From a virus: a DNA stretch of 64,000 nucleotides. The stretch lies in IMG/VR virus record IMGVR_UViG_3300037067_018253. One strand, 5' to 3'. Position numbers and translations under genes: made by a program. The notes under the pieces were generated by a model. That model ran no database searches. It was not told where the DNA came from and worked only from the letters and a program-made list of their open reading frames with translations. This document shows, in pieces, positions 2,125-40,446 of the stretch. Within the stretch, counting starts at the first letter, position 1. Each line of letters opens with the position of its first letter.

Positions 2125-2399
2125 TGTCAGTCTGTATTCACTGCAGGAAACATTTACCCGGCCCGGATGGATATACAATTTGCCTGCCATGCGCCAGTGA
2201 ACTGATAGACCATTGCGCTACCAATGCTGAGATATGCGCTCTGGCTAAAGTGGGGATGGATGCACTGGTAGACGAAGCCACGGGGTATCAAAAGATTAGA
2301 CCGCGTTTTGACCTACAGGAACGCCTGCGGAAATATCATCAAAAACGCCTCGCCATATTCAGCGAAATAGAAGCGAGATTAACGGAGGGGAAACAATGA
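2109..2399 (+). CDS. small Zn-ribbon protein
   Basis: CIHCRKH...CLPCASE paired CxxC motifs; start overlaps the previous stop. Confidence 0.45.
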   Translation: MDGEIMSVCIHCRKHLPGPDGYTICLPCASELIDHCATNAEICALAKVGMDALVDEATGYQKIRPRFDLQERLRKYHQKRLAIFSEIEARLTEGKQ

Positions 2400-2677
2400 A
2401 AAGGCTAATTATCTTGGCAATCATGGCGGTAGTAGCCCTAGCCACACCCATCTTGGCTGATACATCGGAGGTGCAACCACCTTCGCCTACTCCAATTATC
2501 ATCCATGGTGATATCAATATGGATGGCAGGGTTGACGCTTGTGACATTACTAAATGTGAGCGTATTATGATTGGAATGGATAAGCCTACACCCGGCGCCG
2601 ATGTTAACCATGACGGACAGGTTAACTCTATAGACCTGACAAAAGTTGAAAGAATAATTTGCAGACTGGACTATTAA
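2396..2677 (+). CDS. secreted dockerin (type I)-domain protein
   Basis: N-terminal signal-like hydrophobic segment; two Ca-binding dockerin repeats DINMDGRVDACDITKCERIMIG and DVNHDGQVNSIDLTKVERIIC. Confidence 0.7.
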   Translation: MKRLIILAIMAVVALATPILADTSEVQPPSPTPIIIHGDINMDGRVDACDITKCERIMIGMDKPTPGADVNHDGQVNSIDLTKVERIICRLDY

Positions 2678-3020
2678 CCATGGTCAATAATCGAAGGACC
2701 AAGTGGAGAATTACTGCCAAAACGTGCCAATACAGAACTACTGATGCTTCCAGAAATGCGACCGGTAACCCTTTATGTTCGGTGTTACATCCACATATAA
2801 TGCGCTGCACGTTCTCAAAATGTCCCTTCGCGATGCGAGATAGAAATGAATAAAGCAATACAGAAGATCAGGGACTATGAAGACGAAGGTTATCGGTATG
2901 AATTGATGGACGTGGAGGAATCTCAATATACAGATATCGAAACCATGGAATCTGGCGACCGCGTTGTCATCCAAGTGGCCATGAAAAGGGTAAATAAAAG
3001 GGGGATTAAAGGGGGTAAAA

Positions 3021-3683
3021 ATGAGCTATCGTGTATTATTTAGTTTTTCGACTGGCATATCTAAGCCAATAGTCGTGCAAAAGGGCACACTGGAAAATAT
3101 AAAAGAGCGCGTTCATCTAACTGAAGAGGCATTAGGTCTTGAGGTCGAACAATACCGTGATAACCCTAAGTACTGGAAATCCACTGAACCCGAAGATGGT
3201 GTATCCGATAAACTGTATTGCCAGGTAGCCGAGGAACATAACAATTTTATCCGGTGGCTTTACCATCATTTTACGGACCATGCTGAAGTGCCATTTCCAG
3301 GTGATAGTGAGACGATAACGCCGGAGCAAATAGCACCTTTTTGGCATGGCTTAGTGGAAATAGATGTCCCCGTTGAGAGGTGGACCCGGGACTACTACGT
3401 TGCGCGCATGGAAGAGTTGTATGAATCAATGCGTGGCCGCGGTGAGGTTATAATATTCGATAGCAAGCCACTTACCGAAAGACAGGCAGCTGATGTAATT
3501 AATATATTTGCCGGCTATCTTGATAAACATGATGTTAGACTGGATTCCCCAGGGACAGATTCCCTAGCTGGTGAGGATGACGGCGGGTATTACTGGTGTG
3601 AAAAATGCGGGGCTGTTACCGAGCAACACGTCGTCGAATGCAAGAAGCGCAAATGCCCTATAAAAGCAGAGTGGGGAGACTAA
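3021..3683 (+). CDS. hypothetical protein with C-terminal Zn-ribbon
   Basis: RBS aaagggggtaaaaATG; C-terminal CEKCG...CKKRKC. Confidence 0.45.
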   Translation: MSYRVLFSFSTGISKPIVVQKGTLENIKERVHLTEEALGLEVEQYRDNPKYWKSTEPEDGVSDKLYCQVAEEHNNFIRWLYHHFTDHAEVPFPGDSETITPEQIAPFWHGLVEIDVPVERWTRDYYVARMEELYESMRGRGEVIIFDSKPLTERQAADVINIFAGYLDKHDVRLDSPGTDSLAGEDDGGYYWCEKCGAVTEQHVVECKKRKCPIKAEWGD

Positions 3684-4037: not shown

Positions 4038-4128
4038 CTTAATGTGACTGTTCCCCACGACTAAGGGACGAGACCCAGGCTATCCAGCCCGATGTGCCCG
4101 CACCGGGGTTTTAGACGGCGGGTATTGA
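4038..4128 (-). mobile_element. MITE-like miniature derivative of the IS200/IS605 element (RE end joined to LE end)
   Basis: About 50 nt match the RE of the full IS (ggctggatagcctgggtctcgtccc...gggaacagtca) fused via about 14 nt to 26 nt matching the LE terminus (tatcaatacccgccgtctaaaacccc); inverted orientation. Confidence 0.6.
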
Positions 4129-10678: not shown

Positions 10679-10679
10679 T

Positions 10680-12533: not shown

Positions 12534-12630
12534 AGAAGAGCACAAACGAAATAGAAAAGAAAGCCCAAAAGGGCTTTGCCGTCTGTATCCCCAGTATTGA
12601 AATACGGGGTTTTAGACGGTGGGTGTTGAT
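12534..12630 (-). mobile_element. solo left end (LE) copy of the IS200/IS605-family element
   Basis: About 95 nt at roughly 90% identity to the reverse complement of 56360-56457 (LE with hairpin ccccagtattgaaatacgggg). Confidence 0.65.
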
Positions 12631-12727
12631 AAATTTCATTTTCTTCAATCACCATACATCCTTCGATTTTATATCCACAGTTAGTACACTCGAATATTTC
12701 CGTCACGGATAATATACCCTGCCATTT

Positions 12728-17614: not shown

Positions 17615-18506
17615 TTTTACCCCCGTCGTTTAATTTACTCTGCCTGAAACTCTTACCCTCCATCTGGATAAAACGTCCCTGTGTCATTTCCATCAGGCGA
17701 TCAAAAGAGGCTTGGTTCGCGCCGCCAAGATGATCTCTTAATTTGTCTATGCTCAGGTTGGTGGTCATTACTACCGGGCGTGGGCCGGCTTTGTAGCGAC
17801 CGTCAATGATGGTGAAAAGTGTGCGCTGGACAAATTTCAGGTCCGATACCTCGACCTTGCCGATATCATCAAGTACCAGCAATGGCGTGGCTATACACCG
17901 GTTTACTATCGCGAACTCACTCTCCTTGCTTTCCCTGTCACTGAAGCTATAGCTGTAAGTAGCACGTATTCTATCGAACAACTCCGGCTCTGAAATAAAA
18001 TGAGGGACTCCCTGCCACTCCCCATGCCACCTGTCTATAATCGCATTGCAAATTGCGCTGGCCAGGTGTGTTTTTCCGGTTCCCCAGCTCTTCTCTGAAA
18101 ACATAAGGAGTGAGGATGTTTTTTCGGAATGAATAATGTCGTAGTTATCTGCATATGCCTTGCACCGGTTAAATGCAGCCGGTTGCCGTGATTTATCAAA
18201 ATTCCCAAATGAGGCTTTTGTGTACTTGGGCGGTATCCCGCTATTTTGCCTCATTTTTTCTCTCTGGTCTTTAATTATCGCTTCATCCGCCGCTACTGCT
18301 TTGGCATATGCCTCCGCATTACACCTGGTGCATCTGCCACCGCCTTGGATATATTTAGTGCCAAAAAGCGGGCTAACTGTGGTTAGTTTTTTCCCGCGCT
18401 CTGTTAAATTAAGGTTGCCTTTTATTTCAATACCCTGTGCTTCGTATTCATTCCCGCATGTAATACATCTACGTTTTTCACTGATAGCCTTGATTTCTTT
18501 ACTCAA
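17595..18506 (-). CDS. DnaC/IstB-like helicase loader ATPase with N-terminal Zn finger
   Basis: CITCGNEY...CTRC; Walker A GTGKTHLASAICNAI; Walker B LLVLDDIGK. Confidence 0.75.
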   Translation of the reverse strand: MSKEIKAISEKRRCITCGNEYEAQGIEIKGNLNLTERGKKLTTVSPLFGTKYIQGGGRCTRCNAEAYAKAVAADEAIIKDQREKMRQNSGIPPKYTKASFGNFDKSRQPAAFNRCKAYADNYDIIHSEKTSSLLMFSEKSWGTGKTHLASAICNAIIDRWHGEWQGVPHFISEPELFDRIRATYSYSFSDRESKESEFAIVNRCIATPLLVLDDIGKVEVSDLKFVQRTLFTIIDGRYKAGPRPVVMTTNLSIDKLRDHLGGANQASFDRLMEMTQGRFIQMEGKSFRQSKLNDGGKNDHTAN

Positions 18507-19401
18507 TTATAACCCCCTCTAAAGGTTCCAGGTGTGTATTTGTTGTACCGCCGTTCTTGGATTTCATTTTCATGTATAGCCTATCGAACTTCTCACGGAG
18601 GCTGGATGCGCTGAGTATATTAGACATCCAGAAGCTGTCCGATTGGCAAAAATCTATCACATCATGTATTTCCTGCGGTGTCCTTTTATCAAGCCTTAAC
18701 ATCAACCCGATTTCCTTGGACCATTTGGCTAAATTGTCCGGTACTTTAGCCCCGGGGTTGTTAATTAGCACCCTCTCTTTTAAATAATTTGCCAGTAAAA
18801 CTGCCCTGTCCGGACAGGGTTCGGACGTAGATGTTTCTTTAAGAGATTTATTTAATATTTCTTTATATAATGTAGGATGTGAACTTTTGTTCACGTCCAC
18901 CCCTGAACTTTTGTTCACGTCCACCCCTGAACTTTTGTTCATGTCCGTAACTTCAGGGGGTGAACTTTCGTTCAGGGGTAGAACTATTTGTTCACCCCCA
19001 TCATTTTGTTCCAGACCTGAAAATTTCTTCAATAACCGCTGATTTATGGTACCACTATTCCAGTTAGAAATCCGGGTGTTCATCTGGTAAATGTACCCTT
19101 TCCCTTGACCTAAGTCTTTACGTAATATTATTTTTGCTTCAGCCAGGTGTTTTATGCACTTAAATATGGCACGTTCACTAACGCGCAGATATTCTGCTAT
19201 CTCAGGTCTATGCAGGCACGTTTCTTTTTGGCGCTCTCCGTTGACTACCCATCCATAGGTTTTACGCCACAGTAGCAACACTATGCTTTTTTCGGTCCCA
19301 CTCAGGTTAGACAGCGCCAGTGCCTCCAGTAATAAGTTTGATACCGGAGTGGTCCCGTCTTCTGGATCTGCTTTAAGTTTGAATTTATCGCCCTTTGGCA
19401 T
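18499..19401 (-). CDS. phage replisome organizer / replication initiator (DnaD-like, Phage_rep_org_N-type)
   Basis: N-terminal LSGTEKSIVLLLWRKTYGW motif; contains iteron array encoding KSSGVDVNKSSGVDVNKSS. Confidence 0.6.
   Translation of the reverse strand: MPKGDKFKLKADPEDGTTPVSNLLLEALALSNLSGTEKSIVLLLWRKTYGWVVNGERQKETCLHRPEIAEYLRVSERAIFKCIKHLAEAKIILRKDLGQGKGYIYQMNTRISNWNSGTINQRLLKKFSGLEQNDGGEQIVLPLNESSPPEVTDMNKSSGVDVNKSSGVDVNKSSHPTLYKEILNKSLKETSTSEPCPDRAVLLANYLKERVLINNPGAKVPDNLAKWSKEIGLMLRLDKRTPQEIHDVIDFCQSDSFWMSNILSASSLREKFDRLYMKMKSKNGGTTNTHLEPLEGVIIE
18880..19000. repeat. iteron-like array: three 24-bp direct repeats (tgaacttttgttcacgtccacccc) plus inverted partial copies
   Basis: Direct reading; located inside the initiator gene as in lambda O-type origins. 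Confidence 0.55.
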
Positions 19402-22217: not shown

Positions 22218-22511
22218 TCAGGCTTTACCGTTTCCCTTGTCTTTGCCAAAGCAATTATCCATCCGGCGGTCCAGCCGGGCGATTCCCTCATTGACCTCTT
22301 GCTTTGTTTCCTTGATACCGTCATGGAACTCTCTTTTGGCGTTCGCCATCTCAGTCTGTAATACCAAGGTAGTGCCGGCCACTTCTTTTTCACAAGATGA
22401 AATGCGCCCTTCGAGTTTGCCCATACAGCCTGATATTTTCCAGACAGATCCAATAACGGTAAATATAATTCCGCTTCCAGTTCCGATAATGGCTATAGTT
22501 GCTGCGTCCAT
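22218..22511 (-). CDS. holin-like small membrane protein
   Basis: N-terminal TM segment TIAIIGTGSGIIFTVIGSVW followed by coiled-coil; immediately upstream of the peptidase. Confidence 0.35.
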   Translation of the reverse strand: MDAATIAIIGTGSGIIFTVIGSVWKISGCMGKLEGRISSCEKEVAGTTLVLQTEMANAKREFHDGIKETKQEVNEGIARLDRRMDNCFGKDKGNGKA

Positions 22512-23222: not shown

Positions 23223-23902
23223 TATATTGCAAAATACTTTCTTTCTGATTGAAACACTTTATATAGTTGATTTACTGTGGTGGTTACTGACATGCGAAGC
23301 ATAACGATGTAACCATCAAAGGTTCTATTGAGTGTTGCAGTTCCAACTCTTGCCAATGCTCCAACATTTGGAGGCGAAGTGACTGCACCTACTACTGAGG
23401 TTACATCAGTAAAACCATTCTTATTACCAATGTAAAGCTTCCTGGCGACTGTATTTATATGTGCTACCACAAATTGCCAGGAATTCATAACAACAGAGTT
23501 GCCAGACGACTCTGTTGCTGAGTCGTGGTCAACCAAAACTCTTAGAATATTACCAGTAGAAACATAGAATGCATAACCATCATACGCAGTTGTTGCAGTG
23601 CTTTTTTCTATAATGCGACCTGATGAAGCTGCTCCTAATGTTCTCGGATAAATCCACCCATAGATAAAGCCACCTCGTGTGAATCTCATTGATGGTGAAT
23701 CAGGAATTTCACAGTAAGAAGTAGCACCATTGAAATCTCGTACAAATAATCCCGATGGCAGCCTCACCCATGTAACATTGCTGTGTGTGCCATTATTGTG
23801 CCACCGAGAATTATCTTCATAGGCTGAGGCTGGTGTCGCTATACCAGTGTAGACTCGCTCGTTTAAGACCAAATTTGTTACACTCATATAATTCCAAACC
23901 AC
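23222..23902 (-). CDS. LamG/ConA-like lectin-domain protein (paralog 4)
   Basis: DNSRWHNNGTHSNVTWVRLPSG...FDGYI; conserved C-terminus SERKYFAI. Confidence 0.55.
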   Translation of the reverse strand: MVWNYMSVTNLVLNERVYTGIATPASAYEDNSRWHNNGTHSNVTWVRLPSGLFVRDFNGATSYCEIPDSPSMRFTRGGFIYGWIYPRTLGAASSGRIIEKSTATTAYDGYAFYVSTGNILRVLVDHDSATESSGNSVVMNSWQFVVAHINTVARKLYIGNKNGFTDVTSVVGAVTSPPNVGALARVGTATLNRTFDGYIVMLRMSVTTTVNQLYKVFQSERKYFAI

Positions 23903-24708
23903 CGCTTTTCAGATTCAAAGTTATTGCGAATTTCTCCAACAGATAATACTCTTTTAGATACCTTTAATGGATGTAAAAATCCATCAAAACTAGCTGCACT
24001 AGCAGTATTATCACCGATGCGTAAATTTTCACTTGCATCAGATATAATAGCCCCTACTGGAGCTAAGGTCTCAGTGACTGTAATAGAATTTCCATTCAAT
24101 GTAAAAATAGGATTATTCGCAACATTAGAGCCATTATATGTAATCCCAATATGAGAATATTTATTTAATGGAATAACTCTATCGGATTCCCAAGTTGCCC
24201 ATCCACCTGTCCATAATACTGCAAGACCTAGTTTTACATATCCAGCAACTTCATCATAAACATAAGAATAAAATCCCAATGTTGCTAAATCACTTTTATC
24301 TATGATTCTACCAACGTCATTTTCTCCATCACTTAATGGATTTATCCATATAAGAATTGTTCCTCCAGTGATAAAAATATTCTGAATTGATGGTGAATCA
24401 GTTATTGTTATTCGACTCGAAGCTCCATTAAATGAATATAACCATTTTCCACTAGGTAGTCTTACTTGTGTTACATTAGTAAAGACGCCATTATTATGAT
24501 AACGACTTCTATCCACTAGACTCGCTGGTGGAGTAGAGTTACTATTATACCTAGCTGGATTTAGAACAATATTATCAGACATTGAACCACCTACGCTCAG
24601 ACTCATAACTTTTACCAGCATCATCAGAATTAAATAGATAATTATGTATCTCAGGTAATGCCATATACCCAGGAAGTCTCCTTGGGGTAGCTCCACCTCT
24701 AGCTCCAA
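23884..24708 (-). CDS. LamG/ConA-like lectin-domain protein (paralog 3)
   Basis: DRSRYHNNGVFTNVTQVRLPSG...FDGFL...SEKRWFGII; true start probably internal, around 24582-24606. Confidence 0.55.
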   Translation of the reverse strand: MELEVELPQGDFLGIWHYLRYIIIYLILMMLVKVMSLSVGGSMSDNIVLNPARYNSNSTPPASLVDRSRYHNNGVFTNVTQVRLPSGKWLYSFNGASSRITITDSPSIQNIFITGGTILIWINPLSDGENDVGRIIDKSDLATLGFYSYVYDEVAGYVKLGLAVLWTGGWATWESDRVIPLNKYSHIGITYNGSNVANNPIFTLNGNSITVTETLAPVGAIISDASENLRIGDNTASAASFDGFLHPLKVSKRVLSVGEIRNNFESEKRWFGII

Positions 24709-25276
24709 GCATGACTGTATTACCGACTGGATTCAGAATGTCCACAATGTTTACCAGAGTCATAACTACACCATTTAGATAAAATTCAATAGTTGAAGTC
24801 GCTATGTTCCAGACATGAATCCACTGGTTCCAACGAGTAGATAGTAATGCTGACCCTCCCAATATACCGACCGTATTGGCACCAATGCCGAGGTAAACTG
24901 CATCAAGAGTTTGACCATATCCTATAGTTATGTCTGCTGTGGTAGGAGTATTAAGGTCTTTATTAAATACCACATAATTATTTGCAAAGTTATTGAACTT
25001 TACCCAGGCTTTAAATGTCTGTTGGGTATTTAAGTATAAACTTGCTCCTGTTCCTAAAGTTATTTGGCTGGTTACACCGTCAAACGATATAGCGAAAAGA
25101 TCGGATGGTAATTGGCTCCATGTAGTACCTGCTGTAAATACTCCGTTGTTGTTATAACGAGAAGAATCAGACAATTCCAACGCAGGTGAAGTACTACCTG
25201 GAGGACTCCAGAATTTCTCACCTTGGAATACTATATTTGAGGCTTTAGACATTATAGAGCCTCCTCTCGGATTCAA
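24575..25276 (-). CDS. LamG/ConA-like lectin-domain protein (paralog 2)
   Basis: SDSSRYNNNGVFTAGTTWSQLPS...SERRWFNV. Confidence 0.55.
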   Translation of the reverse strand: MNPRGGSIMSKASNIVFQGEKFWSPPGSTSPALELSDSSRYNNNGVFTAGTTWSQLPSDLFAISFDGVTSQITLGTGASLYLNTQQTFKAWVKFNNFANNYVVFNKDLNTPTTADITIGYGQTLDAVYLGIGANTVGILGGSALLSTRWNQWIHVWNIATSTIEFYLNGVVMTLVNIVDILNPVGNTVMLGARGGATPRRLPGYMALPEIHNYLFNSDDAGKSYESERRWFNV

Positions 25277-25964
25277 AAATATGGAGTAACTGCGCTAAAT
25301 CTAATGCGTAGGTAAATATGCGTAATTTAGAGATGTAACCATCAAAGCCTCGGTCTACTGCAGCAGTTTGATTTCCAATTCTCGTTATCGAAGATACATT
25401 AGGGGGTAAAGATAATCCACCTGCGATGTTAGTAACATCACTAAAACCTTTAGCATTACCAGAATATATTTTACGGGCGGTACTATTAATATATACTACA
25501 CAAAACTGCCAAGAGTTAAGTATGATTGAATTTGCATTACTGATTGTTACCGCATCGTTATTTACTGATACTATCAAACTCCTTACATTGGTTACATTAT
25601 TAACTTGAAATCTATATCCATTTGTACCAAGTACATCACTGCCTTTATGGATAATGCGACCACCATTAGACCCTCCAAGAGTTCGTGGATAAATCCACCC
25701 TAGTATCATTCCACCACGTGTAAATCGCATACTTGGTGAATCAGGTATTTCTGCATACGCATCTAATGCACCGCCATTGCCATAGTCAGGAATCCATAAG
25801 TCGTTATTCGGAAATCCATTTAACTTATTTTGCTGGCTCCATGTGACATTAGTAAGCGCACCATTGTTACCCATCCTCGATGCGTCATATAAAGTAACAG
25901 CAGATGGGGATGCCCCACCTGCTCTACTGGCGACATCTAATATTTCACTTGAACTTAGCTTCAT
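25245..25964 (-). CDS. LamG/ConA-like lectin-domain protein (paralog 1)
   Basis: DASRMGNNGALTNVTWSQ...FDGYI...SERRLYNV. Confidence 0.55.
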   Translation of the reverse strand: MKLSSSEILDVASRAGGASPSAVTLYDASRMGNNGALTNVTWSQQNKLNGFPNNDLWIPDYGNGGALDAYAEIPDSPSMRFTRGGMILGWIYPRTLGGSNGGRIIHKGSDVLGTNGYRFQVNNVTNVRSLIVSVNNDAVTISNANSIILNSWQFCVVYINSTARKIYSGNAKGFSDVTNIAGGLSLPPNVSSITRIGNQTAAVDRGFDGYISKLRIFTYALDLAQLLHIFESERRLYNV

Positions 25965-26164
25965 TTTGTCTCGCTTGAAATATCTTTTAACTCCGGTACA
26001 TCGATATCAATGGTATCTTTGGTATTAGTCAGATAATTAAGAGCCCCGTTAACACGCTGTAATTCTGATTCAAGAGATGCCTTTTCCCTCGAGAGTTGTT
26101 TTATCTGAGATTCAATGCCTTCTCGATATTTTGAAATCGCATTTTTAGTTACATCCGATAACAT
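25961..26164 (-). CDS. small coiled-coil protein
   Basis: 67-aa heptad-rich ORF. Confidence 0.35.
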   Translation of the reverse strand: MLSDVTKNAISKYREGIESQIKQLSREKASLESELQRVNGALNYLTNTKDTIDIDVPELKDISSETK

Positions 26165-26175
26165 CTCAATACTCC

Positions 26176-26604
26176 TTAATATGTAATGGCATCATATGTA
26201 TGATACAAAACTTTGACTATTGCAGCAGAACCACCTACTGAATCCATGATTTTTGCTCTCAGCCTGCTATTGCGTGGAATTATTATTGTCTGCATCGGCA
26301 TTGAGTGTGAGCCTAATAATAAATTTGTTCTAGCAAAAGTAAGGCGACCGCACTCAGTATCAGCAGCTCCATAGTACAACACAAGTTCATAATCAGCATT
26401 TACACTCTCTCCTGATACCACTATCCAGTGAATATCGAATGGCAATGCCACTGCATTGGCTGCAATTATATCGTTGCTAAAGTTACCGAGTGTCCACGCT
26501 GCGACATTTGATGTGACTGTAATACCAGCTGCCCCACTGGGCGCAACCATTTGTGGAGAATGAATATGGTCACATAGTTCATGCAAATTACCTATCGGTG
26601 ACAT
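26176..26604 (-). CDS. structural-module hypothetical protein
   Basis: Operon context. Confidence 0.4.
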   Translation of the reverse strand: MSPIGNLHELCDHIHSPQMVAPSGAAGITVTSNVAAWTLGNFSNDIIAANAVALPFDIHWIVVSGESVNADYELVLYYGAADTECGRLTFARTNLLLGSHSMPMQTIIIPRNSRLRAKIMDSVGGSAAIVKVLYHTYDAITY

Positions 26605-26607
26605 ATT

Positions 26608-27096
26608 TTACCTCTTTGCGTCAAAGATTTCATAAGTTAAAGTATTCCAACCGCCACCAATGGCAGCTTGTTGGGTAGTAACCCGTACCCCGTAGACGCT
26701 AAATAATCTACCTGGCGTCACATCTGTATTCGTATTGCGCGGGAATGGGACGAGTATTGGTACTGGCAATGCTGCAGCTAAGAATGTTTCAGTATATAGT
26801 AATCTCAATGTGCCCGCTGGTACTATTGAGCCATAGACTCGTATCGTAGTGTCCTCACCAGCGCCAAAGTTAAGTCCTGTCCAATCGATGTAGCCACCAT
26901 AAAACTCAAATGGAGTGGTGCTAGTCTCAAGATAGAGTTGCTGTTCTGCACCAGTCATTAGCAATGTGCCTGATTGCGGCGAGCGAGCTAAATCAAGCTG
27001 TTGGTCGAGCCTGTCTGCTATAGATTGGAGAGTTTCAGCCCCGCCTTGTATTAGCAACTCAAGCCAGTAAATACGCTGCAAGTTAGTTTCTGACAT
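26608..27096 (-). CDS. structural-module hypothetical protein
   Basis: Operon context. Confidence 0.4.
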   Translation of the reverse strand: MSETNLQRIYWLELLIQGGAETLQSIADRLDQQLDLARSPQSGTLLMTGAEQQLYLETSTTPFEFYGGYIDWTGLNFGAGEDTTIRVYGSIVPAGTLRLLYTETFLAAALPVPILVPFPRNTNTDVTPGRLFSVYGVRVTTQQAAIGGGWNTLTYEIFDAKR

Positions 27097-27106
27097 ATCC
27101 CTCTCC

Positions 27107-27793
27107 CTAATTTCTCACTATGAACTCGGGGTATATTTTCACCACGCCGATCGCCGGTGTAGACGCACCCCCGGCGCCATTTAAAATATAAAAGTTCGGG
27201 AACATCGCCTGGTCCGGTAGGTTTGCAACATGGTCCGCTATCTGTGTTCCGTTCAGGAAGAATACCACGTGCCCACGGTATATCTCCATCCTGAAATTAT
27301 TTCTATTTGTAAGAGTTTCACCAAACCCGGTATTAACGGTTTCCACACCACCAAGGTCCGTGACAGTTTGAAGCGCATTTCCAGCGCCGATGAGGGCAAC
27401 CCCGATTATATCATTAGTCGTTCTCGTGCTTACCACTGTCGGCGTGAAACCGAAGAATGTTGACACATTACTCATGTTGGCAACATTAGTAAGCTGCATA
27501 ACCCATTCAAATATAATCTTCTTGATTATCGTGCTGGTGTTGTATATTGTCGGCGCGACACTCCACGCATTATTACCAACGAGCCGGCAATTTTCACTGG
27601 CCGCTGGAACTGCCGTAGCCCGCTGCATGCCACTGCTTGCGCTAATAGCCCATGCGGCCCCAGTGAGTGGTTGTGTAAGCGTCCAGCGTAATTCAGAAAT
27701 ACCCACCGGGCTTTGCCATGTTTCGATAAGCTGCTCGGTGGGGGACTGAATGGTATTAAGAATATCCTTTAATGCCCCAATTTCATCTATCAT
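27107..27793 (-). CDS. structural-module hypothetical protein
   Basis: Operon context. Confidence 0.4.
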   Translation of the reverse strand: MIDEIGALKDILNTIQSPTEQLIETWQSPVGISELRWTLTQPLTGAAWAISASSGMQRATAVPAASENCRLVGNNAWSVAPTIYNTSTIIKKIIFEWVMQLTNVANMSNVSTFFGFTPTVVSTRTTNDIIGVALIGAGNALQTVTDLGGVETVNTGFGETLTNRNNFRMEIYRGHVVFFLNGTQIADHVANLPDQAMFPNFYILNGAGGASTPAIGVVKIYPEFIVRN

Positions 27794-27795
27794 TA

Positions 27796-28482
27796 CTAAA
27801 CCCCAAACAAATCACGTTCGAGTTGGAATAGCTGATATGCTTCTGCCGCACTCAACTGCCGTCCCCATATCCGAGGACGGTACATATAACCGGAGTACTG
27901 AGGCGCGCCACCGGCATTATTACATCCGAAGTACATATTTCTTACCGCGGCGGCTGGATTCACATGTACGCCTACGCTTGAATACGCTGGCTCCGCCCCG
28001 TTTATATAGATGTGACAACTTGCCCCGGAACGAGTCGCCATAATTAAATACCACTGGTTAATCAATATTACGTTTACAGTGAATGTGCTTTGCCCTGTTC
28101 CACCTTGGCGCGTGAGAAGAGATACCTTGCCTTCGACGCTAACATTCATTGACCAACCATCGGTAATCGTTGCGCCCCGGTTCATTAACGGGTATCCCAA
28201 CAGGGCGCCGGTATTTATCCACACCATGAGGCTGAAATCCCCAGCCGTAAAATTCAGGTCAGCCGTTGCAGCCGCCGGGCACTGCAAGTAATCCGGGTGA
28301 GCTGGATTGAAAGACAAATATGGCGTGCCGTTAGCCAGGGATGCCCATGACGGCGTGCCGGTTAGCGTATGCTGGTGATGCGGCTTGGCGTTATCGTTCG
28401 TCAATACCCCGGTTTCTTCCATGAAAGGAAGGTCCAGCAGTATTTGCGAGTATAGTGATTGTTTATCATATCCAATTGTCAT
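27796..28482 (-). CDS. LamG/ConA-like lectin-domain protein (paralog 5)
   Basis: HHQHTLTGTPSWASLANGTPYLSF...FSLMVWI...LERDLFGV. Confidence 0.5.
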   Translation of the reverse strand: MTIGYDKQSLYSQILLDLPFMEETGVLTNDNAKPHHQHTLTGTPSWASLANGTPYLSFNPAHPDYLQCPAAATADLNFTAGDFSLMVWINTGALLGYPLMNRGATITDGWSMNVSVEGKVSLLTRQGGTGQSTFTVNVILINQWYLIMATRSGASCHIYINGAEPAYSSVGVHVNPAAAVRNMYFGCNNAGGAPQYSGYMYRPRIWGRQLSAAEAYQLFQLERDLFGV

Positions 28483-28488
28483 GTAAAT

Positions 28489-29199
28489 TTAAACCCCGTA
28501 ATGCGAATGTTCTAATTGAAAGATGGTTTTCATTTCCATCGCATTTAGTTCCCGTCCCCATATCCTCAATTGCCCCATGTATCCATCCCACCCGTTAGTA
28601 ATCTCATTATTTTGTATGCCCACCAGCAGTTTGTTGCCACCGGCGCAGGATACAGGGTCAATCAATGTTCCGATGGTATCCGCCACATCACCATTGATGT
28701 AAAATTGCCCCGAAGCGCCATGGCGCGTTACGCCAGCAAGGTGCCACTGAGATGGAATAAATGCGCCTACCGCGCTAATTCCGGTATGGGACCCCAACTG
28801 GCTGGTCCGGAGTGCCAGTGTATTTACACCCGGGAACATATAGAACTCAAATCCATCGACATCAACAGCCCCCTGGCACACGATTTCCTGTGCCCCTCCG
28901 AGTGCATTATTGTATACCCATGCCAGGAAGGTAAAATCTCCATTAGTGAAATTAACATCAGCACTCTCAGCGCCAGGGCACTGTAAATACTTGGAACCAC
29001 CACTGAGGTCCAGATATGGCGCACCGCCTGGTAGTGAAGCCCACGCTGCGCCACCTGTAAGGGTTAATTCATGATGAGCCTTGGCGCGGTCATAAGTAAC
29101 CAGCCCGCTCATTTCCGTGAAGGGTAAGTCTACCAGCATCTGGTAGCCTATGCCGGTCTTGTCGTAGGCTATCTTCACGATCTCAATAGTACCTCCCAA
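28489..29199 (-). CDS. LamG/ConA-like lectin-domain protein (paralog 6)
   Basis: HHELTLTGGAAWASLPGGAPYLDL...FTFLAWV...LEHSHYGV. Confidence 0.5.
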   Translation of the reverse strand: MGGTIEIVKIAYDKTGIGYQMLVDLPFTEMSGLVTYDRAKAHHELTLTGGAAWASLPGGAPYLDLSGGSKYLQCPGAESADVNFTNGDFTFLAWVYNNALGGAQEIVCQGAVDVDGFEFYMFPGVNTLALRTSQLGSHTGISAVGAFIPSQWHLAGVTRHGASGQFYINGDVADTIGTLIDPVSCAGGNKLLVGIQNNEITNGWDGYMGQLRIWGRELNAMEMKTIFQLEHSHYGV

Positions 29200-30526: not shown

Positions 30527-30530
30527 AGCT

Positions 30531-30701
30531 TATTTATCCTTATCTTTTATCCACGGCCAAAAAATACCGAGTCCGCATGGCAGTGGAGGGCCACTCCACG
30601 GCGGCATGGGTATTAGCTTCTGTATACCCACGGGTTTTTCCGACTTGAATATATTAGCCACGACTTTTTCGGTGTCAACCACACCATATGGGGTTACTAT
30701 T
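30531..30701 (-). CDS. 56-aa protein ending in PPWSGPPLP...WPWIK motif (absent from the ORF track)
   Basis: Manual translation MSIIVTPYGVVDTEKVVANIFKSEKPVGIQKLIPMPPWSGPPLPCGLGIFWPWIKDK; C-terminus is paralogous to that of 40456..41250. Confidence 0.4.
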
Positions 30702-30722
30702 ATACTCATGGATGCACCAACC

Positions 30723-34846: not shown

Positions 34847-35680
34847 TTAGCTGGTTGCCAGAGCTCTCAGGTTGCCGCTGGTCTTAACCCACAGACCGAT
34901 AGGCTGGAGTTCGTCGGAACCATTGGTGTAATACCTTACACTGATAGAGGTATTCTCGCCGGGATAGACGAACAACGGCTGTTTTAGTTCCATGACCGGA
35001 TCTCCGAAAATATTGGTGGCCTTCTGGAAGTCCAGGTTCTGGATGTTGTAGGTTACGCCCAGATAGGTGACCTGAACGGCACTGGTAACAGGGGCGCCAG
35101 CCGGGTTGCTGAATCCCAGGATTGCGATTGCTTCGTTCAGGGAGCCAGCGGGCACACCGTTCATGGTAAGCGCGCCATGCAGGTTGGCACCAAGGGCATC
35201 CTGAGCGATGATAAACTGTAGGGTACTGGCGGCGGCTACTGCTCTAACCCACGAAGTCCTCAGTGTGGCTGAGTTAGCCTGGTCGGGGTCGCCGAACTGC
35301 TCTGAGCGGAACATAATAGCATCAAGCTGGTTGCCGGAACCAATCGAACCCTTGAAGCCGGAACGCGTCTGGTAATTGACCACCCTGATCAACTGTGAGA
35401 GACTCAGGATATTTTTGGCGAACAGGTTTTGAATCAAAGGATTCTCAAGCCGCAACGCCACGTCCAGTTCGTCGCAAAACGCCTTGAGGTCGCGGAAGCT
35501 GATCTGTCCCATGATATGGGTAGCTTCCTGCTGGTCCGGTCTCTTGGTAATAAGGTCCTGTTGCTCAATTATCTGGTCGGAATCCTGATACAGGGGCACC
35601 ATAGTCCCGCCGACCTGTATTCTGGTCATCTTGGCTGCCTCTACGCAGCTAATGGGGAGGATTAGATTATCGTAAGCCAT
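34847..35680 (-). CDS. putative major structural (capsid-like) protein
   Basis: 277 aa, first large gene after the intergenic terminator region near 36450-36700; no motif-level support. Confidence 0.3.
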   Translation of the reverse strand: MAYDNLILPISCVEAAKMTRIQVGGTMVPLYQDSDQIIEQQDLITKRPDQQEATHIMGQISFRDLKAFCDELDVALRLENPLIQNLFAKNILSLSQLIRVVNYQTRSGFKGSIGSGNQLDAIMFRSEQFGDPDQANSATLRTSWVRAVAAASTLQFIIAQDALGANLHGALTMNGVPAGSLNEAIAILGFSNPAGAPVTSAVQVTYLGVTYNIQNLDFQKATNIFGDPVMELKQPLFVYPGENTSISVRYYTNGSDELQPIGLWVKTSGNLRALATS

Positions 35681-36422: not shown

Positions 36423-36444
36423 ATACTGACGACCTCCTTAATTT

Positions 36445-36600: not shown

Positions 36601-36696
36601 AGGTCTCTACCCGTCGGCTTCAACCTACTGTTATAATAGTCTAATATTATTTTCAACTTTTTGTCAATAGTTTTTGGGATATTATTCTAATTTAAT

Positions 36697-37335
36697 TCAA
36701 AATATTAATGGAGGTGGAGGTGGAAGTACCACCCTTGGCCTTGCCCTGATAGTAGCGTTGCCATCACCAAGCAGGACTATGTGCGCCGCATCAAATTCAA
36801 GGCAAGCCCGAGATAACTCAAAATCACTGTTCGCCGCATTTTTAAGTAATCCGTTCTTTTGAATTAAATAGCTTTCATAAATAGTTCTGCCGTCAAGCAG
36901 GTTATTTAATCCGTCCACTATTGGCTGTAGCGCTTCTCTGGTATATTTATCGTTCCACGGGTCTGGCCAGTTATCGCTGCAAACGATCCAATTTAAATCG
37001 TCATCGAATCCAATGACTGCCTTAGCACCTTGCTTTACTAATTCAGGGCCAAGTTCTTTGCCACAGTTACAGCTTATTAATTCGATAACCTTATCATTCA
37101 CCTGGTTGCGGTCTATGCCGCCAACTTTCCAAATTCCCTTTAATTCATCCGGGTCGCCATGGCCAGTTGCAACTATCAAGTCTGATTGTGGTGCGGTAAA
37201 ACCAAACATGAATTTTCTTGCCATAGGACCATAAAGCTGAAATGGCTCTACACGCGCACCTATCCCGCGTAAGACCATTCCAGAGCTAAAGTGGCTCGGT
37301 ATATCCGTTGAGGGGAGCAGGAGAGTACAGGTCAC
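36697..37335 (-). CDS. possible caspase-like (His-Gly / Cys dyad) peptidase
   Basis: ATGHGDPDELKG and ISCNCGKEL resemble caspase/CHAT HG and xSCxG blocks. Confidence 0.3.
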   Translation of the reverse strand: MTCTLLLPSTDIPSHFSSGMVLRGIGARVEPFQLYGPMARKFMFGFTAPQSDLIVATGHGDPDELKGIWKVGGIDRNQVNDKVIELISCNCGKELGPELVKQGAKAVIGFDDDLNWIVCSDNWPDPWNDKYTREALQPIVDGLNNLLDGRTIYESYLIQKNGLLKNAANSDFELSRACLEFDAAHIVLLGDGNATIRARPRVVLPPPPPLIF

Positions 37336-37571: not shown

Positions 37572-37583
37572 ATCGGCCTCCTT

Positions 37584-39389
37584 CTATTCCACTCTCACTA
37601 GGTGGTCGGTCCAGAATTGGTAACTACACCCGGGTTGCAATAATGCCCCTGGTGCCGTAAACTGGCCAAGGTATTCTTCGCCATTAGCGCCACCATAGAA
37701 GTTTATAGCGAATATATCCCCGAAATACCCATTGGCATTAAGTTTACTGGCTGGCCCCTGATATACCCATGGGTTGGGGACTTTAATTGTATATGCTGGT
37801 GCAATAGCACTAGGGATAAAATAAGGGTACCAGTAAGTCACTCCAGGTGGTACTGAACCAATGAAAACGCCCAGGCTAACACCAGCAGTTTTGGTTTGGA
37901 ATGAAACCGTTACGCCACTAGATATAATCTCATTCATCAGCTTCTCAGTGGTCGAGTGAATGGCTTTATTGGCCGAGGCCACAGCGCGGAACTGGCATGA
38001 TTTATCAGGAGATAGTCCGGTTATAATAACCTGAAATTGCTGCGGTTCATATAGTAACTGCGATGCCGTTTTATTCCACATCTGTGAATCCGCCTGCTTC
38101 CACTCAAAGTAACAGGATGGATATGAATACACGCCGCCCGCCGCCCATCCCATAGCATCTAGTTTTCCCCTTAACTCAGCGCTTACACCGGTTATATTAC
38201 CGGCTGGCAATGTTATCACGGTCGGTAAAACCACATCCTCCGGTTCAAATATAGGTATCCCTCCGCCTCCGCCACCAGCCCCGCTGATGGTAATTACATT
38301 GGCTACTACCGGACTAACCACATTAACCCCATCTACTATCTTGGCATAGACAGAGTAAGTCCCGGGGTCAACCGCAGATGTAATTGGTATAGTTATAGTG
38401 GACGTTCTTTGTGTCCATGTGCTGGATGCTTCGTTATTCATCCCCACCTTTCTACTTAGAACCTCGTCGAAGCCAAAAATACCACTGTTACCGATAGCAG
38501 CGTACAGGCTTTGCCCGGTTGAAGTAGGTCCCATGTATTCATATCTAACCGTGATATTCAGATTCCCGCCAACGGCCACATTGCCAGTTTGCCCAATCAC
38601 GGATAGATTCCTATACTGCGGATTACCAGATGGCGTTCCTCCGCCTCCGCCACCAGCCCCGCTGATGGTAAAAATATCATCATCCTGCCTGCTGGCAACC
38701 TTCTCGCTGTTTACCCATGCCTCCACCCCGACATCATACCTATCCTTAATAGCCCCGGTCGTATCATGTTCAACCACGGCATTTATAGTCTGGTCCGTGT
38801 TGACCCTGATTGTCTTTGAGTAGCTTTTTATAAGGTCACCGGCCCCAGGTAATATCGAGCCTTCATACACGCCCACCTTAACAGTAACATCAACCGGTGA
38901 TCCTGTATTTGTAATCGGGGTAGTGATAGTTGTTTTCTGTCCAGCTGTAACTGAACTTGGACTTGCGTATGGAGCTGCCAGTTTAATGCCACCCCCGCCA
39001 GATGGTAATGATGCGCCTGCAACCGTCATGGTTTTTATCTCGCTTGCAACCGGTGGAAATGGAGGTAGCACCACTGACCCAACTGGAATAGATGGACCGA
39101 TATATACCCTCGGTATCACCTTATAATCCCCGGTACGGCTAAACCCCTGGTCATAGGTCACATTGAATTTACCCCCGATTACAGTAGACAGTTCGCGTAC
39201 CTCGGGACTACCGAGCAATGGTATTATTTCCTCCCATAACGACTGGGGATATTCCACGGTCACGATTAGCCATACTGGAAGCAAGAAGGACAATCCGAAC
39301 AAGTCTATCTCACCGGATATGGCTACTGGTTGGTCCGGACGCGGTGTTTCCGGTGTTATCTTTAGGTTCTTAATTTCAAATAAAGCCAT
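37584..39389 (-). CDS. large beta-rich (Ig-like) structural protein with duplicated GAGGGGGG module
   Basis: Internal repeat ISGAGGGGGG occurs twice; roughly 40-nt nucleotide repeats at about 38263 and 38638. Confidence 0.45.
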   Translation of the reverse strand: MALFEIKNLKITPETPRPDQPVAISGEIDLFGLSFLLPVWLIVTVEYPQSLWEEIIPLLGSPEVRELSTVIGGKFNVTYDQGFSRTGDYKVIPRVYIGPSIPVGSVVLPPFPPVASEIKTMTVAGASLPSGGGGIKLAAPYASPSSVTAGQKTTITTPITNTGSPVDVTVKVGVYEGSILPGAGDLIKSYSKTIRVNTDQTINAVVEHDTTGAIKDRYDVGVEAWVNSEKVASRQDDDIFTISGAGGGGGGTPSGNPQYRNLSVIGQTGNVAVGGNLNITVRYEYMGPTSTGQSLYAAIGNSGIFGFDEVLSRKVGMNNEASSTWTQRTSTITIPITSAVDPGTYSVYAKIVDGVNVVSPVVANVITISGAGGGGGGIPIFEPEDVVLPTVITLPAGNITGVSAELRGKLDAMGWAAGGVYSYPSCYFEWKQADSQMWNKTASQLLYEPQQFQVIITGLSPDKSCQFRAVASANKAIHSTTEKLMNEIISSGVTVSFQTKTAGVSLGVFIGSVPPGVTYWYPYFIPSAIAPAYTIKVPNPWVYQGPASKLNANGYFGDIFAINFYGGANGEEYLGQFTAPGALLQPGCSYQFWTDHLVRVE

Positions 39390-39402
39390 TATTCATCCCT
39401 CC

Positions 39403-40446
39403 CTATAATTGGTAGGTGGTATATGTCTGCGATTCCCCGCTCATATATTGTATTTCAACCTGCGCATTTCCAGGCTGTAGTGTTCCATAGGTACCTACAT
39501 CTATGGTGTTTTGCCCAACTCCGCCCGGTCCAGTCGCAGAACCCAGTGTAAATCCATCAGATCTGCGAGATATAATCACGGCTACCGTCTCCGCGGCCTT
39601 TCCACTGATGGTATAATTAACCCTTACCTTTCCATTGTCAGCCAGTGCCGGTACTACGATTGATGCAGACGTGATATTTACCTGTGTGGGGGCGCCTTCA
39701 CCCCTGGCTGGTATATATACCTCAGACTCCACCCAATTAGAATATACAGGGCTGCCATAGGCATTAGGTACGCCCGCTATGGGTTTATATACAACCACTC
39801 TGAATTTGATTGCATGCATACCTTCAGGCACATCGCTTGAAACCGCCTGATACCCGTTGATAGAAAATTTTTGTTCCGGTTCTGGCACGGGCCAACCATA
39901 ATCAAGCTCCTGAACCTGTGGGCTGTAATCAGGGATGTTCATTTGCAATCTTGCTACACCAGGCTTCTCGCCGGTATAATACCACGTTCCCTGTATCAAT
40001 AATCCGGGCGGTACCGTTGTAAATGTCATCCATCCGGCCCCGCATCGCTCAAGGTATACAATGGTAGATGGTGAAGTCGGCGGCGGTTCAGTTTCTGGTG
40101 GTGCCTCCGGTGGAGTAAATGCATTGGTATAATTCTGTGCCAGTAACGACAGGTCGAGTGAATCTATGACACCATCATTATTAAAATCAGCCTGCGGATT
40201 CCATATACCGAGTGTCGGCGTAGCCATGTAGGACTCCAGTAATATATTCGTGTCCTCGTCATCCACTACACCATCATGGTCAAGGTCAAAATCTGGCTTA
40301 CCCGGTATTATCTCCGGGGGTAACTCCACGGATTCTTTATACCACGGCCACCGACCTTTCCATGGAAGATAATCCTCCAGTATTTTTGGCAGTGGCGGCC
40401 CCTCTTTAATGCCGACAGGCAACCAATCTATTATTTTAAAAGACAT
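39403..40446 (-). CDS. structural protein carrying a type I dockerin module and Pro/Thr linker
   Basis: DLDHDGVVDDEDTNILLESYM and DFNNDGVIDSLDLSLLAQNY repeats; PPEAPPETEPPPTSPS linker; N-terminal GPPLP...WPW motif. Confidence 0.6.
   Translation of the reverse strand: MSFKIIDWLPVGIKEGPPLPKILEDYLPWKGRWPWYKESVELPPEIIPGKPDFDLDHDGVVDDEDTNILLESYMATPTLGIWNPQADFNNDGVIDSLDLSLLAQNYTNAFTPPEAPPETEPPPTSPSTIVYLERCGAGWMTFTTVPPGLLIQGTWYYTGEKPGVARLQMNIPDYSPQVQELDYGWPVPEPEQKFSINGYQAVSSDVPEGMHAIKFRVVVYKPIAGVPNAYGSPVYSNWVESEVYIPARGEGAPTQVNITSASIVVPALADNGKVRVNYTISGKAAETVAVIISRRSDGFTLGSATGPGGVGQNTIDVGTYGTLQPGNAQVEIQYMSGESQTYTTYQL

Follow-up and report, generated by a model that had tools for sequence, protein, structure and literature searches.

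The type I dockerins of clostridia, compared here through C. thermocellum CelS (PDB codes: 2MTE and 1DAQ), CelD (1CLC) and Xyn10B (1OHZ), and B. cellulosolvens Cel48 (2Y3N), are modules of approximately 55-60 residues with two segments, each formed by a 12-residue Ca loop and a following helix, and with Asp or Asn at loop positions 1, 3, 5, 9, and 12. Dockerins are widespread beyond cellulosomes, according to the passages of PMC9012536 and PMC10066038 that cite Peer et al. 2009. Those of ANME archaea (PMC9012536) and of the giant adhesins of Omnitrophota (PMC10066038) belong to anoxic-sediment organisms and are joined to domains of Ig-like, adhesin, or solute-binding type; their proposed roles are attachment to surfaces or adhesion between cells, with no involvement of cellulose. 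In catalogued phages dockerins are very rare: a search of 50,697 records gave only 2 matches, and the PHROG families gave none. Accessory adhesion domains of other folds are known on phage particles, such as the Ig-like domains of T4 Hoc and the BACON domains of crAss-like phages.

The window analysed here, 64,000 nucleotides of the IMG/VR record IMGVR_UViG_3300037067_018253, covers about 64 of 69 kb of an element that overlapping contigs show to be circular (~68.9 kb). It carries dockerins in two genes, g005 and g067, whose parts are as follows.

2396..2677, plus strand: g005, 93 residues; aa 1-21 resemble a signal peptide and are followed by a short spacer rich in Pro and a single dockerin
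2504..2668, plus strand: dockerin module of g005 (aa 37-91), from Pfam, PDB alignments, and loop residues
2510-2545 and 2600-2635, plus strand: Ca loops of g005 (aa 39-50 and aa 69-80)
39403..40446, minus strand: g067, a modular protein of 347 residues
40123..40293, minus strand: dockerin module of g067 (aa 52-108), from Pfam, 2y3n_B, and loop residues; its Ca loops, placed by their residues, have aa 54 and aa 87 as their first positions
40066..40122, minus strand: Pro/Thr/Glu-rich linker of g067 (aa 109-127), read from the translation
39406..40065, minus strand: C-terminal region of g067 (aa 128-347), predicted to be all-beta by single-sequence AF2

The first-pass annotation had proposed type I dockerins at 2396-2677 and in the 39403-40446 protein, and the Pfam Dockerin_1 (PF00404) search that it suggested places both above the gathering score of 22.9. 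The g005 module scores 42.7 bits (E 6.6e-11; aa 37-87, profile positions 1-55 of 57) and has the C. thermocellum CelS dockerin, 2mte/1daq, as its best PDB match (E 5e-7). The g067 module scores 25.6 bits (E 1.4e-5; aa 54-104, profile positions 3-54 of 57), a margin of just 2.7 bits, and independent support comes from the B. cellulosolvens Cel48 dockerin 2y3n_B, which aligns to it over its full length (E 4e-5). Both align end to end with solved clostridial structures, at low identity, and share their length and two-segment plan. The duplicated Ca-binding segments that had been described are also present, with two canonical 12-residue loops in each module; the residues at positions 1, 3, 5, 9, and 12 are D-N-D-D-D and D-N-D-N-D in g005, and D-D-D-D-D and D-N-D-D-D in g067. 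Matches to EF-hand and FG-GAP in the Pfam scan were weaker, every one falling below its threshold. The dockerin modules of both genes are therefore genuine and type-I-like, and their Ca-binding loops are intact; a small dockerin HMM run on six-frame stop-to-stop segments found these two as the sole matches in the window.

The two modules barely resemble each other (phmmer E 0.04 and 0.008, depending on the direction of the query), and their recognition positions 10-11 read AC/SI versus DE/SL, neither being the Ser-Thr of the clostridial modules. Unlike the clostridial type I dockerins, they have no attached glycoside hydrolase or carbohydrate-binding module, the one in g067 lies near the N-terminus instead of the C-terminus, and both are encoded by a mobile element without cohesin or scaffoldin. 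The non-cellulosomal dockerins described above are chromosomal genes of cells, whereas those of g005 and g067 lie on a phage-like element; they also differ in that g067 lacks a signal peptide and carries a particle-type tag, while g005 is a stand-alone protein of secreted type.

The description of g005 as a small secreted protein agrees with its layout, the dockerin being situated behind an N-terminus, MKRLIILAIMAVVALATPILA/DTSE, that resembles a Sec signal peptide (maximum Kyte-Doolittle 15-mer 2.72) and has no lipobox. Its start overlaps by 4 nt the stop of an upstream ORF (2109-2399), and no homologue other than itself was found in a database of 5.8 billion proteins. The second protein, g067, has no signal peptide or N-terminal hydrophobic segment (KD 0.53). 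It is arranged as an N-terminal GPPLP-WPW tag, the dockerin, the linker (FTPPEAPPETEPPPTSPS), and the all-beta C-terminal region, and an AGGAGG ribosome-binding site precedes it. In single-sequence AF2, only aa ~270-347 reached a pLDDT of 70-86, with low confidence elsewhere, and the model shows a beta-sandwich for the final ~90 residues; the C-terminal region had no match in Pfam, PHROG, or the PDB. The gene is an ORFan save for its occurrence in identical form on 6 contigs, which belong to 6 sample/assembly accessions; this indicates that it is stable and intact. In line with the structural character that the first-pass annotation had given the linker-bearing protein, it lies in a co-directional block of structural-looking genes, of which the following are needed here.

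40336..40428, minus strand: N-terminal tag of g067 (aa 7-37), DWLPVGIKEGPPLPKILEDYLPWKGRWPWYK
40456..41250, minus strand: g068, 264 residues, upstream neighbour of g067
40459-40533, minus strand: C-terminal tag of g068 (aa 240-264), WLPMLPWNGPPLPNFLHIKWPWIK
41259..41498, minus strand: g069, 79 residues, with an internal degenerate copy of the tag, KGPPLPDSWDISWPGFF
30530..30709, minus strand: protein of 59 residues with the tag at its end, LIPMPPWSGPPLPCGLGIFWPWIKDKDK
37584..39389, minus strand: g066, 601 residues, downstream neighbour of g067
34847..35680, minus strand: g062, a jelly-roll protein of 277 residues

The tag has the conserved consensus LPMxPxxGPPLPRxLxIxWPWYK and is common to the N-terminus of g067, the neighbouring proteins, and those of related loci. 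The motif GPP[LIVM]P was observed 5 times against 0.2 expected, so it is not random, and four of the five lie in real genes of the block. In related loci there are 30 copies of the tag, spread over 17 loci; 24 of them form the very C-terminal end and 5 lie close to the N-terminus. Tagged homologues of g068 occur at 15 loci and homologues of the 59-residue protein at 12, and one relative encodes an N-terminally tagged CARDB protein (L017:16160-16975). No family in NCBIfam, Pfam, or PHROG matched the tag. Short terminal targeting peptides are known from encapsulin cargo loading, the T4 capsid-targeting sequence, and microcompartment encapsulation. The GPPLP-WPW tag would be analogous to these, being short, conserved, at either terminus of unrelated proteins, and next to a shell-type protein; however, it has no sequence similarity to them. 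Since the tag is common to neighbours and relatives, it suggests that g067 is physically tied to a common particle, and it is the sole evidence for such a link. In relatives, enzyme-like proteins (a nucleotidyltransferase and a DUF5661 protein) are also tagged, and the role of the tag could therefore lie in internal packaging and not in surface anchoring.

The block itself is a long co-directional run of beta-rich proteins. Its most conserved gene, g062, is a candidate for the capsid or particle shell protein. The layout of g066 is fibre- or adhesin-like, with a conserved N-terminal domain of ~130 aa, beta repeats of ~115 aa spaced by GAGGGGGG linkers, and a unique C-terminal domain; it had no match in Pfam or the PDB. 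Proteins of the related loci L011, L012, and L013 share its N-terminal domain and repeats, with 4 copies of the repeat in L011. The element also encodes five Laminin_G_3 lectin-fold paralogues. No dockerin was found in any of ~76 related loci, nor by the dockerin HMM among 810 ORFs in 461 kb of related loci, and sister elements with the clamp loader, ATPase, and ArdC have none at the position of g005. Both dockerins are therefore element-specific, the relatives keeping the same gene neighbourhoods without them.

From these sequences we tentatively prefer, as one possible account, that a lineage-specific dockerin addition would attach an adhesin bound to the particle to a cohesin-type partner whose gene lies elsewhere; binding of the modules to a host cohesin is a reasonable hypothesis. 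It is somewhat unlikely that they are dockerin-fold Ca-binding units with no cohesin pairing at all, acting as Ca-stabilised spacers or binders of another ligand, as many lone non-cellulosomal dockerins may also do. This would fit the departure from the Ser-Thr pair found at the type I interface in C. thermocellum and the zero matches to Pfam Cohesin among the element products scanned and the precomputed matches, as well as the occurrence, given in PMC9012536 from the reviews it cites, of dockerin and cohesin domains in numerous organisms that are not regarded as cellulose degraders, with unclear implications. However, the duplicated-segment architecture is complete in both modules, and the post-loop helices of g005, DITKCERIM and DLTKVERII, are near-identical. 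Such symmetry within a module marks the dual-mode cohesin-binding surface of type I dockerins. Two independent acquisitions in one element, with none in its relatives, also argue for a specific partner. The viral nature of the element and the place of g067 in a virion are both unproven, and an unlikely alternative is a plasmid-like element whose dockerin proteins are surface or secreted factors that remodel the adhesion or the dockerin-cohesin network of the carrier cell. The element encodes ParA, ArdC-N, an integrase, two DNA methylases, and TnpB; no terminase, portal, HK97, or other known capsid family, and no tailed-phage hallmark, was recognised in it; its family is missing from IMG/VR and the phage collection; and g005, with its signal-peptide-like N-terminus, lies amid replication and anti-restriction genes. 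Yet g067, lacking a signal peptide, would reach a surface only via lysis or a non-classical route, the replication module is of bacterial phage type (clamp loader, DnaC-like loader, DnaD/O-like initiator, and exonuclease), a holin-like membrane protein adjoining a papain-family peptidase resembles a lysis cassette, and the beta-rich block with its jelly roll resembles a morphogenesis module, while conjugation genes were not found in the element and a set of 72,556 plasmids contained no relatives of its ATPase.

The partner may instead be a divergent beta-sandwich of the element itself, such as g066, g068, or another ORFan, so that the dockerin would be an internal connector holding particle parts together. 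The block is rich in unannotated beta-rich proteins, cohesins are divergent jelly-roll sandwiches that can escape sequence models, and g066 and g068 flank g067, 13 nt after and 9 nt before it, probably in one operon. Nevertheless, this is quite unlikely: Pfam Cohesin gave no match for g066, g067, or g068 even at permissive E-values or, at tighter limits, for the other scanned products, a PDB sequence search of g066 and g068 had no match, and the secreted-type g005 would be left unexplained. Moreover, relatives build the same module without a dockerin, which places the dockerin outside core assembly. Least probable is that the element is a phage infecting a cellulosome-producing clostridium, its virion binding to the cohesins of scaffoldins. 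The top PDB matches are clostridial cellulosomal dockerins, which dominate the solved structures, and replication genes of DnaD/DnaC type are frequent among phages that infect Gram-positive hosts; but 50,697 phage genomes, Clostridium phages included, had no match to the element, and the recognition residues are unlike those of C. thermocellum. The cellulosomal connection drawn at first pass is not supported, since no glycoside hydrolase or other CAZyme, carbohydrate-binding module, or cohesin was found in the element. Nor is the clostridial host supported: relatives of the structural module come from anoxic-sediment, groundwater, and soda-lake metagenomes, and four of five loci in genome collections are in Dehalococcoidales, Dehalococcoidia, or Chloroflexota MAGs. 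ATPase homologues are also binned to Deltaproteobacteria and Patescibacteria. The binning of episomal contigs into MAGs is error-prone. An uncultured sediment bacterium, for example a member of the Dehalococcoidia, is a more likely host than a clostridium.

If docking to a cohesin-type partner encoded elsewhere is the correct reading, g067 would be synthesised in the cytoplasm, as the missing signal peptide suggests, and would join the particle of the conserved block via its N-terminal tag, since other proteins of the block and of relatives carry this tag at one terminus. It would represent the layout of the relative, i.e. tag, linker, and CARDB Ig-like domain, with a dockerin added between the tag and the beta-sandwich part. 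After release into Ca-containing surroundings, the dockerin may fold and plug into a cohesin-type module, which is not encoded by the element and would thus presumably sit on the host's surface or that of a neighbouring cell, and so tether the particle. By analogy with Hoc and BACON, it would be a non-essential, lineage-specific binding module on a particle protein that gives more contact with the host surface. However, those folds bind glycans weakly, whereas a dockerin plugs into a protein partner with high affinity and in a Ca-dependent manner, and the virion location is established for Hoc while that of g067 is a proposal.

Phages can also encode proteins that mask a receptor, as T5 does with the lipoprotein Llp, which blocks FhuA. 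Although it lacks the lipobox of a lipoprotein, g005 could by analogy be a small exported-type protein that occupies a receptor and prevents superinfection or the trapping of progeny. A shared receptor is not indicated, since g005 and g067 have different recognition residues; the target of g005 may be a different cohesin. The difference in these residues, together with the low similarity of the two modules, weakens the case for competition at the same site. The infected or carrier cell would export g005 as a free dockerin that fills a cohesin on its own surface, and a receptor might thereby be masked, or resident dockerin proteins displaced.

The dockerins lie in two genes of the window, one of which sits in a block of minus-strand, structural-looking genes:

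2396-2677 (+): g005, 93 aa, a dockerin and nothing else
34847-35680 (-): g062, a 277-aa jelly-roll protein and candidate shell protein of the block
37584-39389 (-): g066, a neighbour of g067
39403-40446 (-): g067, 347 aa, a dockerin and an unannotated beta region
40456-41250 (-): g068, the other neighbour of g067

The claim of the first-pass annotation that there are two dockerin modules agrees with the Pfam Dockerin_1 (PF00404) search that it had proposed as a check. Against a gathering score of 22.9, g005 reaches 42.7 bits over profile positions 1-55 of 57 and g067 25.6 bits over positions 3-54 of 57; all EF-hand and FG-GAP matches fall under their own thresholds. Dockerins are also the sole matches of both proteins among solved structures in the PDB. 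The top matches of g005 are CelS, CelD, and Xyn10B of C. thermocellum (best E 5e-7), and g067 aligns over the full length with the Cel48 dockerin of B. cellulosolvens (2y3n_B, E 4e-5), which gives independent backing to its marginal Pfam score. The single NCBIfam match of g005 is the dockerin end of a cellobiosidase model. Both modules consist of two tandem segments of ~22 residues, each with a 12-residue EF-hand-like loop followed by a helix. The calcium-binding positions 1, 3, 5, 9, and 12 read D-N-D-D-D and D-N-D-N-D in g005, and D-D-D-D-D and D-N-D-D-D in g067. The post-loop helices of g005 are near-identical (DITKCERIM and DLTKVERII), and type I dockerins typically show such symmetry. A six-frame dockerin HMM scan of the window returned these two modules and no third. 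Judged by sequence, both are ordinary PF00404 members as domains. Type I dockerins of C. thermocellum carry a Ser-Thr recognition pair at positions 10-11; this pair is absent here, where g005 has AC and SI, and g067 has DE and SL. Its absence touches the binding specificity, not the membership in the fold.

The smaller protein was claimed to be secreted, and its N-terminus is consistent with this, as it reads as a typical Sec-type signal sequence (MKRLIILAIMAVVALATPILA/D) by inspection. By the same kind of inspection, g067 has no N-terminal signal sequence. A single-sequence AF2 model of g067 has a mean pLDDT of 48 and ~30 in the dockerin region, and its last ~80 residues form a beta-sandwich with fair confidence. 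The g067 protein is identical on six contigs from six sample/assembly accessions, and its gene has 0-1 nucleotide differences; the assemblies vary too little for selection to be inferred.

The dockerins appear only in this element and not in its relatives. None of 810 ORFs (461 kb) from related loci matched the dockerin HMM, and sister elements keep the order of clamp loader, ATPase, and ArdC without a dockerin gene at the position of g005. In a word-index search of 5.8 billion proteins, g005 and g067 found only themselves. The two modules are barely similar in sequence and differ at positions 10-11; therefore, a recent duplication is excluded, and the two may have different partners. The presence of two independent dockerin genes here, with none in the relatives, suggests that an interaction specific to the host has been selected for. 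Phage-like elements rarely carry dockerins: two of 50,697 phage records, each an unannotated faecal fragment, matched the g005 module, the g067 module matched none of them, and no PHROG family matched either dockerin. Incidental mentions are all that the literature search returned on virion- or phage-borne dockerins (gene 40 of VvAW1, a brine-pool jumbo phage, and a structural-model match in an E. coli phage), and it returned nothing on dockerins of Dehalococcoidia.

The first-pass annotation had taken the dockerins as a sign of a cellulosome-producing clostridial host. Pfam Cohesin matched none of the element products scanned, nor did it occur in the precomputed matches, which cover most of the element; PDB sequence searches with g066 and g068 gave no match; and the window has no glycoside hydrolase or carbohydrate-binding module. 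Since no cohesin, scaffoldin, carbohydrate-active enzyme, or carbohydrate-binding module was detected in the element, the g005/g067 system does not count as cellulosomal. It resembles instead the non-cellulosomal dockerins of ANME archaea and Omnitrophota, for which adhesion roles have been proposed (PMC9012536, PMC10066038).

What best ties g067 to a common structure is a peptide tag in which a Trp-rich stretch comes after GPP[LIVM]P (the GPPLP-WPW tag). It occurs in four genes of the block:

30530-30709 (-): 59-aa ORF, tag at the C-terminus (30551-30592)
39403-40446 (-): g067, tag at the N-terminus (40336-40428)
40456-41250 (-): g068, tag at the C-terminus (40459-40533)
41259-41498 (-): g069, tag in the middle (41409-41423)

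In a six-frame translation the motif was observed 5 times and expected 0.2 times. The tag is the sole part of g067 that aligns with anything else; g067 and g068 were accordingly rejected as paralogues, because the tag alone aligns between them. Related loci carry 30 occurrences at 17 loci, 24 at the extreme C-terminus and 5 near the N-terminus, with a consensus of ~25 residues, [LI]PMxPxxGPPLPRxLxIxWPW[YK]K. Examples among the related loci L011-L063 are L011:4123-4416, L013:4923-5435, L017:16160-16975, and L027:980-3844. The tagged proteins are otherwise unrelated to one another: L017:16160-16975 is a CARDB Ig-like protein with an N-terminal tag and then a short linker, and others are a nucleotidyltransferase, a DUF5661 protein, and several ORFans. 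The segment behind GPPLP, only ~12 residues long, cannot span a membrane. A sortase-type signal was considered and rejected, as no transmembrane segment follows the tag and as the NCBIfam and Pfam models, sorting signals such as PEP-CTERM and LPXTG included, gave no match to the tag-bearing proteins. The tag may be a portable attachment or targeting peptide, perhaps for attachment to a particle or for targeting of cargo.

Three proteins of relatives with a C-terminal tag (L027:980-3844, L031:1299-2288, and L013:2034-3020) look like chains of small, mutually unrelated domains between which G-N-P motifs recur (e.g. GGNP, SGNP, EGNP), and they may be polyproteins with protease sites.

Since contigs of other assemblies overlap both ends of the window and each other, the element is a circle of ~68.9 kb, with which a 69,004-bp contig on record agrees. 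The metagenomes in which the element occurs are GCA_043956695.1, GCA_043956575.1, ERZ27247363, SRR18595300, SRR8542065, and SRR22315506. The ~4.9-5 kb outside the window encode a type III polyketide synthase (chalcone-synthase-like) and small ORFs. Recognised genes of the element are those for a DNA polymerase III clamp-loader subunit, a DnaC-like helicase loader, a DnaD/lambda-O-like initiator, an exonuclease, an MCM/AAA-like ATPase, a tyrosine integrase, an ArdC-N protein, two N6/N4 DNA methylases, TnpB, ParA, PAPS reductase, DUF1064, DUF5131, an SPFH protein, and a radical-SAM-like protein; a tRNA scan found none. A co-directional run of minus-strand genes extends from ~45.7 kb down to 22.2 kb and contains a nucleotide-sugar epimerase, many ORFans, the five Laminin_G_3 paralogues, and the papain-family peptidase with its small membrane-protein neighbour. 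These and other features are as follows:

18499-19401 (-): DnaD/lambda-O-like initiator, with a 24-bp unit x2.8 and a 19-bp unit x2.2 at 18880-18994
22218-22511 (-): small protein with an N-terminal membrane helix
22524-23222 (-): papain-family Peptidase_C1
23222-29199 (-): five Laminin_G_3 (concanavalin-like lectin) paralogues in a row, ~230 aa each
41824-42085: ~260-bp segment including a 74-aa ORF (41839-42063)
42070-42984: epimerase
56468-57601 (+): TnpB (IS605 OrfB)
57598-58488: radical-SAM-like protein
59418-60398: UbiA-like membrane protein

The polyketide synthase, UbiA-like protein, radical-SAM-like protein, and epimerase make up a lipid or secondary-metabolite gene set, which mobile elements do not usually carry. 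The ~260-bp segment, which lies just upstream of the epimerase gene, is an indel polymorphism, absent from two variants (L001, L002) that are 99.1-99.6% identical. The Laminin_G_3 paralogues, with 23-44% pairwise identity, could be a diversified carbohydrate-binding set. The small membrane protein, directly upstream of the peptidase, could form a lysis pair with it; no glycosidase or amidase lysin was found, and, speculatively, lysis by a protease would fit a host whose wall is proteinaceous, e.g. Dehalococcoides-like bacteria. The repeats in the initiator gene, which read as VDVNKSSG in the protein, resemble origin iterons that lie within an initiator gene, an arrangement also seen in lambda. 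The 98 bp just upstream of TnpB (56358-56455) recur inverted at 12539-12636 (95% identity), and the 3' end of TnpB (57516-57596) recurs inverted at 43010-43096 (88.5%) and 4044-4093 (81%); each of these could be a solo IS end or an omega-RNA-like copy.

Pfam and PHROG gave no match in the window to any terminase, portal, HK97 capsid, or tail family, and thus none to the hallmarks of tailed phages (Caudoviricetes), namely the terminase large subunit, portal, HK97-fold capsid, and adjacent tail genes. The sole 'tail' match is a weak one to a tape-measure PHROG (E 7e-4) across several concatenated proteins. Collections of known elements gave nothing, whether 12 kb of the window were compared with phages by megablast, g062 and the P-loop ATPase with the phage collection (50,697 genomes) by tblastn, that ATPase with the plasmid collection (72,556) by tblastn, or IMG/VR was scanned with g067, g062, and the g062 alignment. 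Within the block, conservation is highest for g062, which has ~60 representative homologues; a PDB profile search with its family and a PDB sequence search with the block protein g064 gave no significant match. The P-loop ATPase (1210-2124, +) has >135 homologues on contigs up to ~100 kb and lies just downstream of the clamp-loader gene in the window and in the two sister contigs examined. It matches only generic AAA or STAND-like models, plus a single weak Zot and a single weak HerA, and is not assignable to a family, the FtsK/HerA packaging ATPases included; PDB searches with its family profile and its sequence gave no significant match, and a SAP domain is present in some family members. 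The ATPase is a marker for a broad group of large, uncultured elements that are absent from phage and plasmid collections. In a 212-aa protein at 36697-37335 (-), conserved in ~35 related loci, an HG...C pattern (ATGHGD, SCNCG) may, by eye, recall clan CD (caspase/gingipain-like) cysteine proteases. Its 607-aa homologue (L013:7361-9184) has a LAGLIDADG_3 match, which suggests that an intein or a homing endonuclease has inserted there.

Replication genes and strong AGGAGG ribosome-binding sites alike indicate a bacterial host. An archaeal host was considered on account of the MCM-like AAA match and the dockerin-rich ANME archaea, and was rejected since the clamp loader, DnaC-like and DnaD/O-like proteins, and AGGAGG sites point to bacteria. 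When the g062 alignment was scanned against a genome collection with one genome per species, five loci were found, four of them in Dehalococcoidales, Dehalococcoidia, or Chloroflexota MAGs and the fifth on a short "Deltaproteobacteria" contig. Nothing points to clostridia. A further 71 loci, with contig names of JGI (Ga...) and GenBank, came from a metagenome scan. Synteny with the window covers the epimerase, the tagged proteins, a g066-like gene, and the genes g070, g064, g062, g061, g058, and g055; related loci also have the UbiA-like membrane protein and the membrane protein of 54395-55078. The NCBI names of ATPase homologues are those of Dehalococcoidales, Deltaproteobacteria, and Patescibacteria bins. 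The best guess is therefore a Dehalococcoidia-type host, held with moderate confidence; episomal contigs are easily mis-binned. Of the first-pass annotation, then, the observation of dockerins stands and its interpretation holds in part, while the reading of a cellulosome and a clostridium should be dropped.

The annotation also suggested that the particle, if the larger protein is part of it, could dock on cohesin-bearing scaffoldins; g067 is, from its sequence and surroundings, a candidate virion protein only. By domain logic and gene context, the likeliest reading, though a tentative one and somewhat short of probable, is that g067 is a particle-tethered adhesin that docks on an externally encoded cohesin, and that g005 is a secreted free dockerin. 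The layout of g067 would be that of tag, linker, and beta-sandwich with a dockerin inserted; the tag would tether the adhesin to the particle, and the dockerin would plug into a cohesin encoded outside the element. A place on the outside of the particle would be favoured by the Ca2+ need of the dockerin and by the Ig-like partner domains. A broader reading, which we regard as unlikely, is that the element belongs to an unrecognised particle-forming lineage, probably of non-tailed jelly-roll-capsid viruses of uncultured sediment bacteria such as Dehalococcoidia, that loads proteins by the tag and has captured two dockerins for adsorption and cohesin-masking. Interchangeable proteins would be loaded onto or into the particle via the conserved terminal tag, the tagged adhesin would display the dockerin, with which the particle would plug into a cohesin on the host surface and thus adsorb, and the secreted dockerin would mask the cohesins of the infected cell or rewire them.

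Among known protein-protein plugs, dockerin-cohesin pairs rank with the tightest and most specific, and to our knowledge they have so far been studied as cellular assembly devices. If the dockerins are lone calcium-binding modules on a plasmid, the result is a modest annotation note. If the broader lineage reading is true, this would be the first natural use of a cohesin-dockerin pair in virus-host recognition. With a dockerin displayed on the particle, one cohesin-dockerin match could determine the host range, which would be engineerable, and a secreted free dockerin would be a simple means of interfering with host surface complexes. These are genuine dockerins in an unusual setting; of greater novelty may be the element family and its tag. 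This family of 50-100 kb elements, with its conserved jelly-roll protein and portable terminal tag, has no relatives in phage, plasmid, and IMG/VR collections, and it may infect Dehalococcoidia-type sediment bacteria, for which we know of few viruses.
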